The translations under genes were made by a program, and so were the position numbers. The notes under the pieces are model-generated. The model saw nothing but the letters and a program-made list of their open reading frames with translations, did no database searches and was not told the DNA's origin. From a virus, in IMG/VR virus record IMGVR_UViG_3300025154_000064, positions 24,975 to 88,974 of that record: a stretch of 64,000 nucleotides of DNA. One strand, written 5' to 3'. Shown piece after piece: positions 52,901 to 63,712 of the stretch (positions are counted from its first letter, which is position 1; every line of letters begins with the position of its first letter).

Positions 52901-55722
52901 CTTTCCTTTGACAGCATGACTAAGAGCGCGTTGATGTGAAGCGCTTCGTGGTATTCCTCATCGGTAAAAAACGGATTATCCATAAACGTTCTCCCATGGG
53001 TCTGGCTCCGATTCAATTTCTTCAATCTTGATCCCGGTTAGTGTGAAGATATCAGCCCACTCGAACCCGCACCTATGGCAGTGTACGCCTTGAGAAATAT
53101 AGTCTCCACAATGGCTTGTACTCCCACTGTCTATATCAACGCTATAACACCGAGGACAATAGACGCCACCTTTGGCGAGATAATCTTCTTCCATTTTTTT
53201 ATAGTTCATTTCGGCAACCTCTCAATCCTGTTTTTAGCCTGGTCGAACTCGCATGGTGTCCAGCTGACAAGCTCTTCCTGTTCATCCACAGTCAAGCCGT
53301 CCAGGACCATTGCCATAAAAGGGTCGATCTCATGCGATCCCCAGAAGAAGTGTTGGTCTTGGGTTTTCATTCAAGCCTCCGGTCCTTTCGTGATGTCTAC
53401 CCGGTTGAAAGTGTAAATGTCGGTCCATTGCGATCCGCAATCGTCGCAATTCGCATCCTGGGTGACCTCGTTCATTCCCATTTCAAGGCAACCATAGGTA
53501 ATATCTGACGTTCCACACACTGGACAAGTTTCAGGTTCCATTCAAACCTCCAAAACACGGCTTTTGGCCTCATCGATATCTTCAGGTATGCTCGATCCGA
53601 TATCACTAAAGAGCTCCATATCGCCATAATATAAGCCATCGTAATAAATCAGATCTTCCACATATTTCAGTGATTTGTGCTGAAAGAATTTGTCGAGAGT
53701 GTGTATCCAACAAGCATAGGTAACCTGAACATTCTCAAACGGCCCGAAGAACGGCCCAGATGCACCCCAGGCATCCATGTCTTCGGTAACTGTTTTTCTT
53801 CCATGATAAAGATGTATATAAATTGCCATCACTCCCCCTCCTACCAGTCACACTGGTTCTGCCACGCGGCCTCATCCACCCGCTCGGCGATCATAATGGC
53901 GCACTCATCGCAGATTTCGCCTTCGTTGCACTCGTTCTCGCCGCAGAATTCGCAGATGGTCATAAGCACCCACCGCAGCACCCATGGGGCACGACTTCAT
54001 TAACCTTCTTGAGAACTTCTACCCTCAAATCAAACGGAAAACCGGCCGGCCATGGATGAATTTTCCACTCGCCCTTGGCTATATGATAGTCTCCATAACC
54101 AGCATTAATGGTACGTCCACCAGATACAAGGCAGTCACCAAACTCCCACACACAGCCATTGATAGTTACGATCAGGTTTCCATCGCAAAGCTTTGGCCAT
54201 GCCCCATCATAGTTGATCTCAATCATCGGTCCCCCTTTGGTAGCCTGCACGGAAAGTCACTCTTGAATAGCGTCGAGAAGCCGGCCTGAAGCGTTTGAGG
54301 TATCACGCTACCCACATTTCCCTTCTCTTTCCATGGACCGTATTTGTAACCATACCGCGTTTTATCTTGAAATCTCATGAACAAAACGCCATCGCTTCTT
54401 ATCGCGGCCTGGATCAAGCCATGTATCCCGCCGGCGTATTTGGCTAAGACTTTCATCGAACCTCCTTAACCCAGAAAAGTGTGCCACATAGGATGCACCG
54501 ATGGCGGGATACCTCGAACACTTCATCCGGAATAAAGAAATCGAAATCCCATATCCCAACATTAACGCTTTCTCTGTTTATCTCAATCGCATCGCCACCG
54601 CATTTAGGACAGTTCATGCCGCCTCTCTTTCTGCATCTGACCATGCATCCAACATGTTGACGATACCCTCCAGCGCTCTCCTCGCATCAGACGTCATATC
54701 GCCGCCGGCACAGACCTCTCCAAGAATAAGCCGCTGCTCTTCAAGGTAATCCACATTCACGTTTTCGAAGGTGATAGCACGGTGTTTGGGAATGATAATG
54801 GACCGAGCGTTGACGGTTGTTCCCAAACCAGGCGCCGGTCGAAGCGTTTCGCTGAAAGCCTCCCACTCTTCCTGAGTCGGAACAGATAGGTTATATTTCT
54901 TTTCATTACCCGATGCCAGCCATCCTGAGCAATAATCGCCATGCTTCAGGATGAGATAGAACGCATCTGGGTAGTCGGAAGGTGGTTGCCATATTTTGGA
55001 CATGCCTTTCTTGCGGTCCATAATTTTTGTGCAAGCAGTGCACCATGGTTCACAGTCACCAAAGGCAGCCGCTCTTTTCCCGCACTTCGGACATTCCCAG
55101 GCTGGCGCGTAAATATACTCACCCTTAATGTGGCAATCCACAACACACCCGGGATCGCCCGCCGTCATCCGGACAGAAAAACGAGCGTTGCATTTGTCGC
55201 AATAGATGGCCGCGTGCGATACAGAGGTGAATTTCGAGTGCCCACATACCGGGCAGGTTAAGGCGTCCCACTCGAACGGGTTGAATCCGCCGATGTTCTC
55301 GATACAGAATGTCATACCCCCACCTCCGCATCTTCCAGCGCACGACGTCGCGCTACCAATGCCAGAGTCAACGGCTCGATCTGCTCCCGGCACCACAGCT
55401 TCGCCATCATTTCGGCCAAAAACCATGTCTGTGCGCTGAAAGTTTTCTCCATCACACGAACACCCGGGAAAACTTTCTCCCGTTAGCCCCACATCGAGTG
55501 AAGCGGGTGGCCGCCAATAAGAACGCGCTCTCCAAACCGCAATGATTCATGAAGCTGAAGGTTTTCGTCAGCAGGTAGGCACACAGCGCCGGTAACGGTT
55601 ACCAGATCACCAAGGATTGGCTTCTGTTGGCCTAAGCGGTCGGTTGTAAGCCGGGCGTGAAGGTCGTTCCCAAGTTTTACGGATATTAATCTCATGCTAT
55701 TCCTCCTTAAATTCGGTTCCAA
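49902..55722 (-). other. Cluster of small leftward hypothetical genes, many with zinc ribbons (e.g. 49902..50186, 50186..50941, 50938..51264, 51249..51614, 51604..52269, 52451..52735, 52738..52984, 52976..53209, 53371..53541, 53542..53832, 53960..54226, 54223..54456, 54453..54617, 54614..55315, 55483..55695)
   Basis: Contiguous, translationally coupled ORFs; no family recognised with confidence. Starts approximate. Confidence 0.6.
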
Positions 55723-56224
55723 ATATTATTTTAAAGTGGATAGCCTGCTTTTCCCTTGCGGCATCCCTTGCGGCATCCCTTGCGGCATCCCTTGCGGCAG
55801 CCCATGCGGCATCCCTTGCGGCATCCCTTGCGGCAGCCCTTGCGGCATCCCATGCGGCATCCCTTGCGGCAGCCCATGCGGCAGCCCATGCGGCAGCCAA
55901 CTCTTCTTCTGAAGCTTCACCGTGTGCAAAAAGGTGCACAGTTCTCACAGCGTCACGGCTTCTTTTATCTTCCATGAGATGCAAAATATCCTGACAACAA
56001 GCCACGGCAAAGAGTCTGTATCTCTTCGCAATATCATCCCCTTCGAGTGCCGATTTGGGGACCCATAACACATCGTTAAGCCCATTAATTTCCAGAATCT
56101 TTACAAGCTGGATGGGTGTCTCGTCTTTAAACCCTCTACCAAGACCTTTCTTCAGATGCTTGTAGCGTTCGGTGCAGGCTTTCGCCTCTCGCAATTTCTT
56201 TAATGTCGTGTAGGGTATCATCAA
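55697..56224 (-). CDS. Phage protein with Ala-rich tetrapeptide repeats (AAWA/AARD)
   Basis: N-terminal LKKLREAKACTERY..RLFAVAC; C-terminal (AA[W/R][A/D])n. Confidence 0.8.
   Translation of the reverse strand: MMIPYTTLKKLREAKACTERYKHLKKGLGRGFKDETPIQLVKILEINGLNDVLWVPKSALEGDDIAKRYRLFAVACCQDILHLMEDKRSRDAVRTVHLFAHGEASEEELAAAWAAAWAAARDAAWDAARAAARDAARDAAWAAARDAARDAARDAAREKQAIHFKIIFGTEFKEE
55753..55898. repeat. 12-bp coding tandem repeat CCC(T/A)TGCGGCA(T/G), about 12 copies
   Basis: Directly visible; encodes the tetrapeptide repeat. Confidence 0.95.
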
Positions 56225-57155: not shown

Positions 57156-57179
57156 CACCAAGGCGCGAGGGCCTTGGTG
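57156..57179. promoter_or_regulatory. 9-bp hairpin immediately 3' of the last array unit
   Basis: CACCAAGGC-gcgagg-GCCTTGGTG. Confidence 0.6.
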
Positions 57180-57181
57180 GT

Positions 57182-57334
57182 TGGTACGCAAGAACCATCT
57201 GTGGTTAAAAGCTGAAGTGGCTCGCATACGAATCCTGTGTTTGAAATACTTCTTGGCTCGCAATTTAATCATGTGGCTAAAAGCGTTTTTGGCTCGCATT
57301 CGGATACTGTGTTTAATTATTCATCTGGCTGTCA
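57182..57334 (-). ncRNA. TIGR-like dual-repeat guide array, segment 4 (4 units of 36 nt)
   Basis: Plus strand: TGGCTCGCA-like at 57182, 57218, 57254, 57290, 57326, alternating with TGTGTTTAA-like at 57200, 57236, 57272, 57308; all spacers 9 nt and unique. Confidence 0.88.
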
Positions 57335-57338
57335 AACA

Positions 57339-57989
57339 TCAATTAACCATAGGCTGCACTGGCCGCCCGGCTGGCGCAACCGCCATGCCAACGTCGTAAG
57401 CTGTCTTGGCCGCAATCAATGCCGCCTTCAACTTTTTGATTTGCTCGTGCTGCTCAATGATGGTCCGCTCTTGTTCGGCGATGATCTCATCCTTCTGCGA
57501 GAGCTGCCTCATCAGGCTTTCAACCGTCGGTTTGGCGACCACTGGTTCCTCGCGCTTGGCCTTCAGTTCCGGCTTCTCGTGCTTTGCGATGACCTTCTCG
57601 ACAAGCGCCGGCGTGACTTTCTCAATTGGAACAGATGCCAAGTCGTTAAAGACTTTTTCTTTTCCGACGGCGCCACACCGATGGTGCGCTGCAATTGGGA
57701 TAGACGGACCATACTTCACAGCCTCGACTGGTGCGCCGATAAAGGCGAGCTTGAGGTCACCGTACCGGCCTGGGGAAAGGTCGAACATGGTTTTCACATA
57801 TTCGTTAAAGGATGCGTTCTTAAATCTCGGGTTTTCCCTGAAGCGCTTGGTGTAATCCAAGTAATACAACGCACGGATGAAATTCTTCTGGTGCCTCAGC
57901 TCAAGAATTTTCTCACGTGCCGCTTCGGTTTCGATCTGGGTAATGGATCTGGTGTCATACTTTTTTTTCAATTCTTCGATAGCTTGCAT
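57339..57989 (-). CDS. Uncharacterised protein nested between array segments (helical N-terminus, C-terminal coiled coil)
   Basis: 216 aa, RBS AAAGGA; NASFNEYVKTMFDLSPGRY is HTH-like; heptad-rich C-terminus. Confidence 0.8.
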   Translation of the reverse strand: MQAIEELKKKYDTRSITQIETEAAREKILELRHQKNFIRALYYLDYTKRFRENPRFKNASFNEYVKTMFDLSPGRYGDLKLAFIGAPVEAVKYGPSIPIAAHHRCGAVGKEKVFNDLASVPIEKVTPALVEKVIAKHEKPELKAKREEPVVAKPTVESLMRQLSQKDEIIAEQERTIIEQHEQIKKLKAALIAAKTAYDVGMAVAPAGRPVQPMVN

Positions 57990-58014
57990 TGTTTTTTTCC
58001 TTTTTTGGGTTTGG

Positions 58015-58312
58015 GGTGACGCATTGGCAAATTGTGTTTAAATGGAACCCTGGCTCGCAAAATGATGATGTGCCTAATCCAAAGTTTGACTCGCAATAAT
58101 TTTCTGTGTTTAACTTTCCAGCTGGCTCGCATCCTCAAGCTGTGTTTAAAAAAAATAGATGGCTCGCAACCTCGGATCGTGTTTAATTTTGGCGCTGGCT
58201 CGCAAACGTTTTTTGTGATTAATCGTGAAAATGGCTCGCAAAGTACCAATAGGGTTAATCTTCATAATGGCTTGCAGGTTCATTGTGTGTTTAACCGGAA
58301 CAGTGGCTTCCC
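58015..58312 (-). ncRNA. TIGR-like dual-repeat guide array, segment 3 (8 units)
   Basis: Edge repeats at 58015, 58051, 58087, 58123, 58160, 58196, 58232, 58268, 58304; loop repeats at 58033, 58069, 58105, 58141, 58178, 58214, 58250, 58286. One spacer is 10 nt (A-run). Confidence 0.92.
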
Positions 58313-58348: not shown

Positions 58349-59206
58349 TTATGCCTCTACCAACTCTTCCACCTCAACCTCGATATCTTTCTTAAAATAA
58401 AACGGCTCGATAATCCCGGTATGTCCCAAGATCGTCCCAGCATAAGGCTCGCTGACCGGCTTCCCGTCAAGCGTCCGCGCGACGGTCCAGAAGTGGGACA
58501 AAAATAACTTCACCGTCTCGTGCTTCGCCATGTTTAAACGATGGCCTTTGGTGGCGTCCGGATGGGTCCGTTCACGTTTTCGCTTGGAAGCTTCCAGGAA
58601 GGTTTTATACTGTTCGTCTGCCGGATGCCGGTTAACCTGTTCGCCAAAGTGATAGGTAACTACCCGGCCGCGGCTCGACCAGTCCGAGACGGTTCCTTTC
58701 TTTCGCTTCGGCATCTTCCCGTCAATGACGTGCCGCCCCATGTAATGCCACCACCCGGAAATATTGGCGAAATCCTTCTCTTCAATGGCATGATGGGTGT
58801 GGCCTTCGCCCTTGGCGCTCTTCTGGCAAGTCGAGCACCAGAAGGTGTTGAAAGATTTGCCTTCCTCCTCGACAGCTTTCTTCTCAAGTTTAGTGCCGCA
58901 CTTCTCGCACACCGGCGTGAAGCGGTAATAATAGAGCAGGACCAAATTCCCGGCGATGAAAGGGCCGGCACCAGGGACGTGCTTCAGCCACTCGGTCCAG
59001 ACCGGATAAAATTCGAGGTCCTTTTCGATGTTCCGGGACAGCTTGCCTTTAATACTTTCCAGATTCTTTATGAGGTCCTGGTGTTTCTCGCTGGCATCAG
59101 GGTTCATCGACCCGAGCCGGTTTTTCGTCGAAACGAGCATCTTGCAAAGGTCATCATAGGTCCTGCAATTGAAGCTTAAATTTCTTACTACCATTTCGTC
59201 TATCAT
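58349..59206 (-). CDS. Nop/IS110-C-terminal-like RNA-binding protein (TasA-like) with a CxxC-x20-CxxC insertion
   Basis: 285 aa from ATG 59206 (RBS AAAGGA). Coiled-coil N-terminus; WLKHVPGAGPFIAGNL; DFANISGWWHYMG; KRKKGTVSDWS; GHRLNMAK..KLFLSHFW..R..DGKPVSEPY..LGH. No DEDD/RuvC domain. Confidence 0.85.
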   Translation of the reverse strand: MIDEMVVRNLSFNCRTYDDLCKMLVSTKNRLGSMNPDASEKHQDLIKNLESIKGKLSRNIEKDLEFYPVWTEWLKHVPGAGPFIAGNLVLLYYYRFTPVCEKCGTKLEKKAVEEEGKSFNTFWCSTCQKSAKGEGHTHHAIEEKDFANISGWWHYMGRHVIDGKMPKRKKGTVSDWSSRGRVVTYHFGEQVNRHPADEQYKTFLEASKRKRERTHPDATKGHRLNMAKHETVKLFLSHFWTVARTLDGKPVSEPYAGTILGHTGIIEPFYFKKDIEVEVEELVEA

Positions 59207-59282
59207 GCTGTTTTTCCTTTGTTGTTTTGCCGTAATAGTACGGCGGTTACAGAGTTGGTGCCGCAAAAGCGCGGCGGTTTTT

Positions 59283-59363
59283 GGTTAAGCATTTCCTATT
59301 TGTGTTTTAAAAGGAAAATGGCTCGCAAGACATTAATGTATTCAATTTTCAAAATAGCTCGAA
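59283..59363 (-). ncRNA. TIGR-like array, segment 2 (2 degenerate units)
   Basis: ..GCA-TTTCCTATT-TGTGTTTTA-AAAGGAAAA-TGGCTCGCA-AGACATTAA-TGTATTCAA-TTTTCAAAA-TAGCTCGAA keeps the 9-nt register. Confidence 0.7.
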
Positions 59364-59466: not shown

Positions 59467-59483
59467 CTTTCCACCTCATGATA

Positions 59484-59726
59484 TTTGTTTAACCGATTCA
59501 GTTGCTCGCACTGGCAAGTTGTGTTTAAAATCAAACCTGGCTCGCAAGCTGGGTATGTGTTTAAAGAACGTCCTGGCTCGCAAGCCTGATCTGTGTTTAA
59601 TAAGGACAATGGCTCGCACAACAAGCCTGTGTTTAACGGCCGGAATGGCTCGCAATTGCTTTTTGTGTTTAATTTCATGGCTGGCTCGCAATCTGTTTCT
59701 GTGTTTAATCGAAACTTTGGCTTATC
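59484..59726 (-). ncRNA. TIGR-like dual-repeat guide array, segment 1 (6 complete units plus a half unit)
   Basis: Edge repeats at 59502, 59538, 59574, 59610, 59646, 59682, 59718; TGTGTTTAA at 59520, 59556, 59592, 59628, 59664, 59700; exact 36-nt period. Confidence 0.95.
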
Positions 59727-60449: not shown

Positions 60450-61895
60450 TTAAGGTTTTTCCTTCGGTCTTACGGTAAGGTTCGGCTTAAAATAGACGCT
60501 CGCGCCGAGCTTCCTTGAATCTTTTAGAAGGTTCTCGACCCATTCCCATTCGGGTTGGGATTCCAGTCCGCGACTATTACGGCTTCTGCCACCAACAATC
60601 ACCCAATCGACTCTGAAGTCACTCTTCAAGGTAATGGGTTCAAGCATAGGTTCACATGACAGGAAGAGAATGTTGTCGATATCTTTAATTTTCTCGAAAG
60701 CCACGCCGGCCGAATCAGCTCTTGCCTGCGTATCGGCTGTTGCACCCAGCAAACAGTTCTTCGGAAACTCAAAGTCGGCATAGCGTGCCGGGTTTTTCGT
60801 GAGGAATAAAAAATTCCATTGCGGGTTTTCGCCAACAACTGTCAGCACGCTTTCGATCCACTCATCCGGCACCCAAGGGCCAAACAGGTCAGCCATGCTG
60901 CAAACGAAGACATTGTTATCCAGCACGCCCGGGGGGACTGGCGTATTCGCCGCCGCGCACAGCCTTTCCGGGTGAAACGTAGGCTCAAATGTGCCATCGA
61001 ATCTCATGCCGATATCGTAGGCATAACAATACTCGCACCCATATTTACATCCGGTTACCGGGTTCCACGAATATTTGGCCCACTCGATATTTCCATTGGT
61101 GACGTTGAATTTCGATGTCGATCTTGTTATCTCTTTCTCTTTAATTTCCTGCATTGCCGCGTTAATGGTCTTGGCGCCTGCCTTAACCTCCTCGGCAATT
61201 TCTGGATCAGCTTTTTCGATAGCCTTCGCCATACCGACCATCTTCCCGGAAACGCCTACGGTTTTCGCGGCCTGCTCGCGGGATTCGTTCTCGTGCCGTT
61301 TCTTTGTGAGGTCTTCAAGCCAATTCGTTTTTGACGGGTATGGTTCCGGTTCTGGCTTTTTCTTGGCTATTGATTTAAGCCAGTCATCGCTTCCGGGGTT
61401 TGGTTCCTGTTCCTGATTTTTAGGTTGCGGAATAACCCAAGGCTCTTTGGGTTTTATAACCGCTTCCGGAAAATCTTCCGGAAGCGGTTTGCTGCCATAC
61501 ATACCTGGTCCGCTTGTAGCCTGCCGATCCTTAGCCATCGCCGCATACATCTTCTCCACCTCGATAGCCAGGAACGCCCTCTGACTCTGGTTCAGGTGCC
61601 GGCGGTTCAAGTTTTCCGAAAGGACATAGGCGATCGGATCTACCGGATTAAATTCCTCGATACGCACGTCATTTTCAACATCAATTGACGCGCATAGCCT
61701 ATTCCGGCCATCTATCAGCAGTCCGGCAGATGTAACCCGTGCCGGATGAAGGAAGCCGTTTTTCCTGACATCTTCCACCAAGGCCAAATATTCTTCATCG
61801 CTCATCATCGGCATTAAGTTCGCCGCCGGATGTACCCCAGCCAGATCATAGAGTCGAACAGCTTCTTCTAATTTTTCTTTGAAATTTATTGGCAT
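60450..61895 (-). CDS. ParB/Srx-like domain fused to a DUF5131 (phage Gp37/Gp68, three-Cys) domain
   Basis: N-terminus HPAANLMP..LIDGRNR..SENLNRRHL; C-terminus IEWAKYSWNPVTGCKYGCEYCYA, VFVCSMADLF, LTKNP, LSCEP, WVIVGG. Confidence 0.9.
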   Translation of the reverse strand: MPINFKEKLEEAVRLYDLAGVHPAANLMPMMSDEEYLALVEDVRKNGFLHPARVTSAGLLIDGRNRLCASIDVENDVRIEEFNPVDPIAYVLSENLNRRHLNQSQRAFLAIEVEKMYAAMAKDRQATSGPGMYGSKPLPEDFPEAVIKPKEPWVIPQPKNQEQEPNPGSDDWLKSIAKKKPEPEPYPSKTNWLEDLTKKRHENESREQAAKTVGVSGKMVGMAKAIEKADPEIAEEVKAGAKTINAAMQEIKEKEITRSTSKFNVTNGNIEWAKYSWNPVTGCKYGCEYCYAYDIGMRFDGTFEPTFHPERLCAAANTPVPPGVLDNNVFVCSMADLFGPWVPDEWIESVLTVVGENPQWNFLFLTKNPARYADFEFPKNCLLGATADTQARADSAGVAFEKIKDIDNILFLSCEPMLEPITLKSDFRVDWVIVGGRSRNSRGLESQPEWEWVENLLKDSRKLGASVYFKPNLTVRPKEKP

Positions 61896-62782: not shown

Positions 62783-63712
62783 TCAGGCCGCCTTTGCTCT
62801 CGCAGCTTTGTATCCCAAAAGCTCACTATCCAGCCGTGCGGAAATTTTCTTCATACTCTTGATAACGTCCTCAATTTCCGTAATGCGCCGGCTGTTACAA
62901 TTCACCAACAACCCGGCCTTGTCATCGGCAAAGGGTGTTTCCCGGAATTTCGCCATAGCGGCAAAGAGCTGGCTGAAGGCGGATTTGGCCAGTGCTTTGT
63001 CTTTGTTTGTTTCCACCGGTTTAGCCTTATCCAGAAGGCTCAACTGGGCCTCTTTTTCAAGGAACACTTCTATGTGTTTCAACATGCTGGCAACATCTTT
63101 TCCGCGCCGTGACACATCATAGCATTTCATAACCCGGCTCGGCTTCACAGTGGCCAGTTTTCTGGCAACCGCTTTAGGCAACCGGCCAGCGTCAAATTCG
63201 CGTAGCAAAATTTCGGGCAAGCCAAGTATCGGCAAATCGGCTTTGAGTGTCGTCAACGAAGTCCCAAATGCCTTGGCGCAAGTTTCCAAAGGAATGCAAT
63301 GGACGTTGACGGCCTTGTCGATCGCCTTGAGAGTTTCCAAAGCTCCCATATCCTTCCGAACGGCGTTATCCATGATCTGGTCCACAAAAATGTCACCATC
63401 AGTCTCTTCTGAATAGTCACAGATCTTCGCTTCGATTTCCAAGCCATCATCACCGGCACGGAAACCTTCCCTTTCGCTACCATCCCAGTACATATTCACA
63501 TACAGGGACACCGCCGTATAACGACATTCCCCATTGACTATCCAGTACCGACCAGGAATGTCCGGGTTTTCTCTTACATGAATTGGGTTCTTTAGACCCC
63601 TTTCCGCAATAGAGACGGCCAGTTCATCCCGCAGGTATTCCACGGGTTTGGTTTTTCGTGGTTGATGAATATCCGGGTCGATCGCGCTGATTTTAATGAA
63701 TTGAGTTGCCAT
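62783..63712 (-). CDS. ParB/Spo0J-family protein
   Basis: HQPRK..LAVSIAERGLKNPIHVR..IVNGECRY..DNAVRKDM, followed by an HTH. Confidence 0.9.
   Translation of the reverse strand: MATQFIKISAIDPDIHQPRKTKPVEYLRDELAVSIAERGLKNPIHVRENPDIPGRYWIVNGECRYTAVSLYVNMYWDGSEREGFRAGDDGLEIEAKICDYSEETDGDIFVDQIMDNAVRKDMGALETLKAIDKAVNVHCIPLETCAKAFGTSLTTLKADLPILGLPEILLREFDAGRLPKAVARKLATVKPSRVMKCYDVSRRGKDVASMLKHIEVFLEKEAQLSLLDKAKPVETNKDKALAKSAFSQLFAAMAKFRETPFADDKAGLLVNCNSRRITEIEDVIKSMKKISARLDSELLGYKAARAKAA

Follow-up and report, generated by a model that had tools for sequence, protein, structure and literature searches.

Locus layout and guide arrays

The DNA analyzed here, hereafter the window, is the last 64 kb of the 88,974-bp IMG/VR virus record IMGVR_UViG_3300025154_000064. 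On its minus strand, from position 59726 down to 57182, two genes and four TIGR array segments (A to D) were found: a tas-like gene, the product of which has a Nop domain and no nuclease domain, and an open reading frame (ORF) encoding a protein of 216 amino acids (aa), which is called the partner in what follows. The comparison of related loci lends strong support to the view that the partner accompanies the Tas-like protein as a dedicated companion.

The array unit, read on the minus strand, is TGCGAGCCA-N9-TTAAACACA-N9 in a strict 18/36-nucleotide (nt) register, and approximately 21 units are distributed over the four segments. Segment A (59475..59726, minus strand) contains seven units, each made up of the edge TGCGAGCCA, a 9-nt spacer A, the loop TTAAACACA and a 9-nt spacer B, and its first edge is 5'-degenerate (GATAAGCCA). 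Segment B (59283..59363, minus strand), with approximately two degenerate units, lies immediately upstream of tas and is followed by two small hairpins (59228-59279). The ribosome-binding site (RBS) word of tas, AAAGGAAAAA (59211..59220, minus strand), precedes the ATG at 59206 by 4 nt, and the gene itself (58349..59206, minus strand) specifies a protein of 285 aa. Eight units form segment C (58015..58312, minus strand), located between tas and the partner gene and closing with a 3'-degenerate last edge (TGCGTCACC).

The partner gene (57339..57989, minus strand; ATG start, TGA stop) is located between segments C and D, and its start lies 25 nt past the final shortened edge of segment C. Its RBS word (57994..58003, minus strand) is the same as that of tas, AAAGGAAAAA, at the same distance of 4 nt from the ATG. 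Downstream of the stop codon (57339-57341), 4 nt (57335-57338) separate the gene from the 5'-degenerate edge TGACAGCCA (57326-57334) with which segment D (57182..57334, minus strand; four units, degenerate edges at both ends) begins. A preliminary description of this DNA had placed the 216-aa ORF between the third and fourth array segments, with 4 bp from its stop to the next edge repeat and with an A-rich RBS shared with the tas-like gene; all three observations were confirmed.

In each segment the first edge repeat is degenerate at its 5' side and the last at its 3' side, the openings reading xxxAAGCCA or TGACAGCCA and the ends TGCGTCACC, TGCGTACCA or TGCTTAACC. Degenerate terminal edges have been described for dual-repeat TIGR arrays (Faure et al. 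2025, Science, PMC12045711, cited throughout from the part of the article available), and the edge word TGCGAGCCA is identical to that of the TaTIGR and ParTIGR arrays published there. One unit of segment C (58131-58168, minus strand) has a 10-nt spacer A and is therefore 37 nt long; arrays composed wholly of 37-nt units were seen in three of the related loci described below (L002, L010 and L083). A GC-rich hairpin, read by eye, follows segment D (57158..57177, minus strand). Since it lacks a T-run and is followed by another minus-strand gene (start 57123), transcription probably reads on past it. A 36-nt periodicity at 55752-55895 was considered as an additional array and rejected, as it stems from an alanine-rich protein repeat of 12 codons within a phrog_18326 gene (ORF 55697-56224, minus strand).

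The product of the tas-like gene matched TaTasR (PDB 9mty_A; 1.7e-28) over the Nop part only (TaTasR residues 113-323), and TasH (21kl) weakly (0.0019), over the C-terminal part only. No RuvC, HNH or other nuclease family was found in it by a Pfam scan, which bears out the earlier statement that the Nop protein lacks a nuclease, and phrog_4285 was its sole PHROG match. Based on the Nop match and the lack of a RuvC, HNH or other nuclease domain, the gene at 58349-59206 is, by sequence, assigned to the TasA type. The mechanically called ORF starts at TTG 59266 (58349-59266) and would give 305 aa; ATG 59206 is the likely start, because it has the RBS word 4 nt ahead of it and because the closest relative (89% identity) has 282 aa and the relatives 264-300 aa. 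A CxxC...CxxC pair (C100, C103, C124 and C127 in the 285-aa numbering; residues ~100-127) is invariant in 86 Tas sequences of the clade, and probably forms a zinc ribbon that interrupts the alignment with TaTasR between its two matching stretches. The locus as a whole displays the features of a TasA-type dual-repeat TIGR-Tas system, namely a nuclease-less Nop protein, units of ~36 nt with edge, spacer A, loop and spacer B, and degenerate segment ends.

The partner family and its linkage to tas

On sequence grounds the partner gene is a real gene, since full-length relatives with 25-75% identity exist and since an exhaustive search of 50%-identity representatives returned 265 proteins at E<=0.001 (145 at E<=1e-10). 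A word-indexed search recovered two relatives only. Among the 150 matches listed, most are 190-270 aa in length and aligned from approximately residue 4 to approximately residue 195; the exceptions there were three shortened forms of 107-154 aa, a few others of less than 190 aa and one of 364 aa. No additional Pfam domain was detected in the longer members, and no fused longer forms were found among 8000 candidates, the latter being weak evidence. A tblastn search against GenBank phages and PLSDB plasmids gave no match, and two distant family members, each used as a single query in viral contigs, gave no loci.

The partner matched no Pfam, PHROG or NCBIfam family, apart from coiled-coil noise on its C-terminal third, and profiles of 3, 140 and 9 sequences gave coiled-coil or chance matches only when compared with PDB sequences. 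In the 140-sequence alignment residues E20, L41, Y43, R49, F61, Y64 and G94 are nearly invariant, and the motif LYYLxxTxRFRENxxYK...F..Y is conserved. With this alignment AlphaFold2 returned a model with a predicted local distance difference test (pLDDT) score of 95.2, compared to 68.8 with three sequences. The model contains nine helices and zero strands. Residues 1-150 form a basic, helical N-domain (pI 9.4), in which the HTH-like stretch noted in the preliminary description was modelled as a helix-turn-helix (HTH; helix 61-69, turn, helix 73-85). The long coiled coil noted at the C-terminus was modelled, in the monomer, as a single helix of 49 residues (156-204). Neither a nuclease nor a ParB/Srx domain was found in the protein.

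The nearest named clusters by language-model features were phage and plasmid proteins of the DUF3102 family (PF11300), which contributed 12 of 30 matches. Models labelled DUF3102 also appeared at ranks 2, 13, 15 and 24 of the structure search in BFVD, where all E-values exceeded 0.03. The DUF3102 hidden Markov model (HMM) did not match the partner in a search of its own 89-kb genome alone at E<=10, nor any of nine N-domains of the family; in 301 genomes of the phylum of a metagenome-assembled genome (MAG) carrying the partner it gave no match, and the controls were silent too, which makes this last result uninformative.

Related loci were collected with the partner and, separately, with Tas as the seed. 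Partner-seeded loci were obtained by motif-based scans with a 7-sequence alignment and by a profile search of one phylum. Pattern matches yielded two viral loci (of 60), six metagenome loci (of 467) and one genome locus (of 49), and of the 401 genomes of that MAG's phylum compared with the profile, two had a full-length match, one of them being the same MAG; the 19 other matches there covered the coiled-coil part only and were set aside. All ten partner-seeded loci lay beside 36/37-nt periodic arrays, and a tas gene was visible in six of them. The remaining four (L005, L007, L008 and L038) are cut 0-830 nt from the gene on one side, or have an array that reaches the contig end; they are not counter-examples, since they are cut short and since the order partner-array-tas exists too.

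The Tas-seeded search, with an alignment of 86 Tas sequences, gave 59 viral loci, 54 in the close clade and five more distant. Eleven close-clade loci (L071, L078, L084, L090, L095-L099, L109 and L120) were taken for duplicates, solely because their scores and spacing were identical, and were removed, which left 43 distinct loci; two of these (L070 and L116) stop at a contig edge, so that 41 were informative. A full-length partner was found in 36 of the 41 (88%; the copy of L085 is cut by the contig end) and a partner fragment in one (L117). The earlier proposal that the ORF is a candidate partner of the Tas-like protein is borne out as a conserved linkage: wherever a locus was long enough for a verdict, homologs were accompanied by tas genes and by 36/37-nt arrays, and it is not the case that they occur mostly without arrays or Tas.

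The usual order was tas-array-partner(-array), with the partner upstream of tas only in L110, L111 and L113. By an approximate, k-mer based count, 31 of 35 loci had an array between tas and partner, and 17 of the 33 with room for one had an array past the second gene; arrays past the partner began within ~25 nt of its stop in 13 of 14, an equally approximate figure. In an all-against-all clustering of the ORFs of 52 loci, the only widely common real proteins were Tas (47) and the partner (45). Judged by their coordinates, the other large clusters were frames antisense to tas or across arrays, and the next families were two of terminases (13 and 7 of the 52 loci). The flanks of the cassette varied and included terminase and portal genes, SSB, Rha and Dam genes, radical SAM genes, or a ParB-DUF5131 pair.

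These counts leave little room for the explanation that the partner is unrelated cargo which landed in the array and is merely co-transcribed. Four of the 41 related TasA loci (L073, L092, L115 and L121) have no partner, as might be expected of cargo. Set against this are the arrays in all ten protein-seeded loci and the retention of the partner in the 36 Tas-seeded loci in spite of a mean identity of 29% and wholly different flanks. The synteny counts bring this explanation close to refuted, and we give it almost no credence.

The pairwise distances of Tas and partner were strongly correlated (Mantel r 0.80, 35 loci, 0/2000 permutations as high), the partner evolving faster (mean identity 29% vs 47% for Tas). 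At the level of the genes, these comparisons show that Tas and partner are inherited as one unit; binding of the two proteins is not thereby demonstrated.

A dedicated gene could also be a regulator of its own cassette, and the model of the partner invites this thought, as a small basic domain of HTH type with a putative dimerising helix has the look of small phage repressors. The protein would in that case be a dimeric HTH repressor or activator acting on the operon promoter or on array DNA to control how strongly tasA and the guides are expressed, outside targeting, and the same synteny would be seen, dedicated regulators being tightly linked to their systems. Autoregulators are usually encoded upstream or divergently. 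The partner gene, on the contrary, lies downstream of tasA, inside the array transcript and with the same RBS, and the family size, the presence in 88% of informative loci and the strong co-divergence fit a structural partner at least as well. A role as transcription regulator is regarded as unlikely.

The gene is flanked by array on both sides at a distance of a few nt, and this position points to yet another explanation, in which the partner serves the arrays as an RNA- or DNA-binding factor for the processing or loading of pre-tigRNA, or for duplication, gain or loss of guide units. The number of units in relatives varies widely, from ~4 to >30, and tigRNA maturation and array expansion are, in the available part of Faure et al. 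(2025, PMC12045711), without a known factor. Against such a role, Tas by itself sufficed in E. coli for correct processing of the arrays of partner-less systems (Faure et al. 2025, PMC12045711), and no nuclease, integrase or RNA-binding fold was detected in the partner. We consider an array factor distinctly unlikely.

Relation to TasParB and proposed role

Pairing of this kind has been published. In the available part of Faure et al. (2025, PMC12045711), tasParB and tasA share an operon in which arrays stand ahead of, behind and between the two genes, and the tasParB-tasA operon is conserved while its flanks are variable. TasParB is predicted there to dimerise via its C-terminal regions, and its name is based on HHpred matches to ParB domains, including those of CTPases, with ParB/Srx literature cited. 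The preliminary description had suggested that the ORF may encode an effector or adaptor; such a role is putative, and no catalytic domain was detected in the protein. It had also suggested that the present arrangement would then be a two-component variant of the system, and the novelty of such a variant is now doubtful; its observation is right, and its partner reading is right as conserved genetic linkage, the pairing architecture having been published in 2025.

The present partner resembles TasParB, as far as the latter is described in the available text, in being operonic with a nuclease-less TasA, in having dual-repeat arrays upstream, downstream and between, and in the conservation of the cassette while the flanks vary. 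The C-terminal dimer feature of TasParB compares with a single 49-residue helix, seen in a monomer model, and with Pfam and PDB sequence matches of coiled-coil type only. Unlike for TasParB, with its HHpred-based ParB-like label, no ParB homology could be reproduced for the partner, and its model contains no ParB/Srx domain.

Two genes upstream on the same strand encode ParB-like proteins, a 481-aa DUF5131 protein with an N-terminus that appears ParB/Srx-like by eye (60450-61895, minus strand) and a 309-aa ParB_N/HTH_ParB protein (62783-63712, minus strand). Their nearness to the TIGR locus looks coincidental, as neither gene was found near tas in related loci. Apart from the window's own ParB and one ParB_N-methylase (L091), no canonical ParB was found beside tas in relatives of this TasA clade.

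ParB proteins, in which an HTH DNA-binding domain is combined with a C-terminal dimerisation domain (e.g. Caulobacter ParB on parS, PDB 6s6h), are among the nearest known systems, and the partner could be a true member of that family minus the N-terminal CTPase domain, acting in segregation or silencing by bridging, with the array perhaps as a centromere-like site. The searches speak against this. For the partner, ParB_N was absent from one Pfam scan and from the 25 commonest of 95 families in a second scan; the ParB_N model finds the window's own ParB at 62783-63712. When the 89-kb genome was searched by itself at E<=10, the ParB_N, HTH_ParB and DUF3102 HMMs did not match the partner, and the only HTH_ParB protein was the same true ParB. 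Comparison by hhalign of the 140-sequence family profile with 30 canonical ParBs gave probabilities below 1%, and a comparison of the profile with the window's own two ParB-like proteins gave nothing. The model is without the alpha/beta ParB/Srx domain, and no ParA-type partner was seen in the cassette. A trimmed ParB is considered very improbable.

The place given to TasParB by Faure et al. (2025, PMC12045711) is occupied here by the partner family. By analogy of position it may be the same family, with chances that we put at about even, because the ParB label was not reproduced and because the literature cited for TasParB is that on ParB/Srx. The data set of Faure et al. includes members of this TasA clade. 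If TasParB is a true ParB, it would belong to another TasA clade, as no canonical ParB was found near tas in the relatives of the present one, and the family described here would be a second partner class. A bolder form of this proposal, which we find rather unlikely, is that the family is distinct from the ParB-like gene of Faure et al. and forms a second partner class, undescribed so far, which evolves fast and has a fold that PDB does not yet contain. It would then be the true partner of the largest phage TasA clade, in a two-protein system in which TasA-tigRNA finds the site and a dimeric helical protein delivers the effect. Our guess is that such a family stayed hidden because, with copies averaging 29% identity, it was broken up into small clusters at the 50% identity threshold. 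If the two-protein reading were true, rival phages or satellites might be hit in their packaging or late transcription, a thought prompted by the frequent position of the cassette beside a terminase gene and by its place between the terminase and portal genes of two loci.

The role that we favor, with moderate confidence, is that a phage-borne, nuclease-less TIGR-TasA cassette has in the partner its dedicated second protein, which works as a non-catalytic helper at guide-specified DNA sites. One minus-strand transcript would carry tasA, the partner gene and the ~21 guide units, with both genes using the same RBS. Based on the model, the partner may dimerise through its long C-terminal helix, and its basic N-terminal domain may bind nucleic acid, most likely DNA, via the HTH. 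It would act with the TasA dimer-tigRNA complex at sites specified by the guides in a non-cutting manner, the helper holding, bridging or extending a TasA roadblock without cutting of the DNA.

Nuclease-less CRISPR systems (type IV and type V-M) may need helper proteins. Functional analogs of TasA are seen in these systems (Faure et al. 2025, PMC12045711, available part), which like TasA are RNA-guided binders carried on mobile elements and acting without cutting. Their accessory proteins show no homology to the partner, so that the likeness is an analogy only. Transcription repression by TasA under the guidance of RNA has been shown (Xu et al. 2026, bioRxiv 10.64898/2026.09.09.750476); a word search of the text available for that preprint found no mention of an accessory, associated or neighbouring gene, nor of ParB. 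In word searches of the literature for TasParB, and for TIGR-Tas with ParB, Faure et al. was the only paper with a match, and no functional test of TasParB was found.

Several results weigh against the favored role. All structural matches of the partner fell below the level deemed meaningful for helical proteins by the notes of the tools used. The partner is absent from the four close-clade loci named above and from all five more distant Tas loci, and TasA-tigRNA complexes were purified without any partner (Faure et al. 2025, PMC12045711, available part); on these grounds TasA can work as a stand-alone protein. Co-divergence and synteny are also expected from mere linkage in one mobile cassette. 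Promoter and terminator scans of the locus gave no sites above those of shuffled sequence, and no terminator-like site at 57158-57177. The guides, compared with the phage's own 88,974-bp record in four geometries and up to 18/18, gave as best result two mismatches, once, the same as with shuffled guides.

Of the branches of TIGR-Tas, nuclease-less TasA is the least understood, and an obvious way to its natural function leads through a companion that nearly nine in ten loci of a large phage clade possess. The companion may be relevant to engineered repressors or activators built on TasA as well. New in this analysis are a defined family, with a 140-sequence alignment, a confident model and a conserved motif, the counts of linkage from both directions, and the caution that the ParB-like label could not be reproduced for the partner family. 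If the partner is the published TasParB, the locus is one more example of a known, uncharacterised pairing.

Neighbourhood and occurrence of the cassette

The tas-array-partner cassette often adjoins a large terminase gene (L003, L037/L071, L036/L070, L005, L115 and L121). In L003 and L037 it is located between terminase and portal, the terminases belonging to two unrelated families. This neighbourhood may mark a hot spot of insertion, or it may hint at late expression. In L002 (= L119; 1-1860) the C-terminal part of Tas is encoded on the plus strand at the contig start, and an N-terminal Tas fragment lies on the opposite strand directly after the partner gene; the layout points to an inversion or rearrangement of the cassette or else to an artefact of assembly.

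A central piece of the partner gene, ~240 nt long (57513-57772), was recovered, with no differences, as short contigs in three runs from three other studies (groundwater, wastewater), and the remainder of the locus was not seen in those runs. These isolated copies may reflect low coverage of a close relative. No run listed as RNA contained the locus, and from one possible-RNA run, which is probably DNA, only a 244-nt piece of the locus was obtained.

Loci L010/L012 and L038 come from Desulfobacterota genome bins and are probably in prophages, since Rha, Bro-N, SSB and Dam genes adjoin them. Two Tas relatives carry the NCBI names Thermodesulfobacteriota and Smithella, and these names and the Desulfobacterota bins together give a hint of the host range of this phage group.
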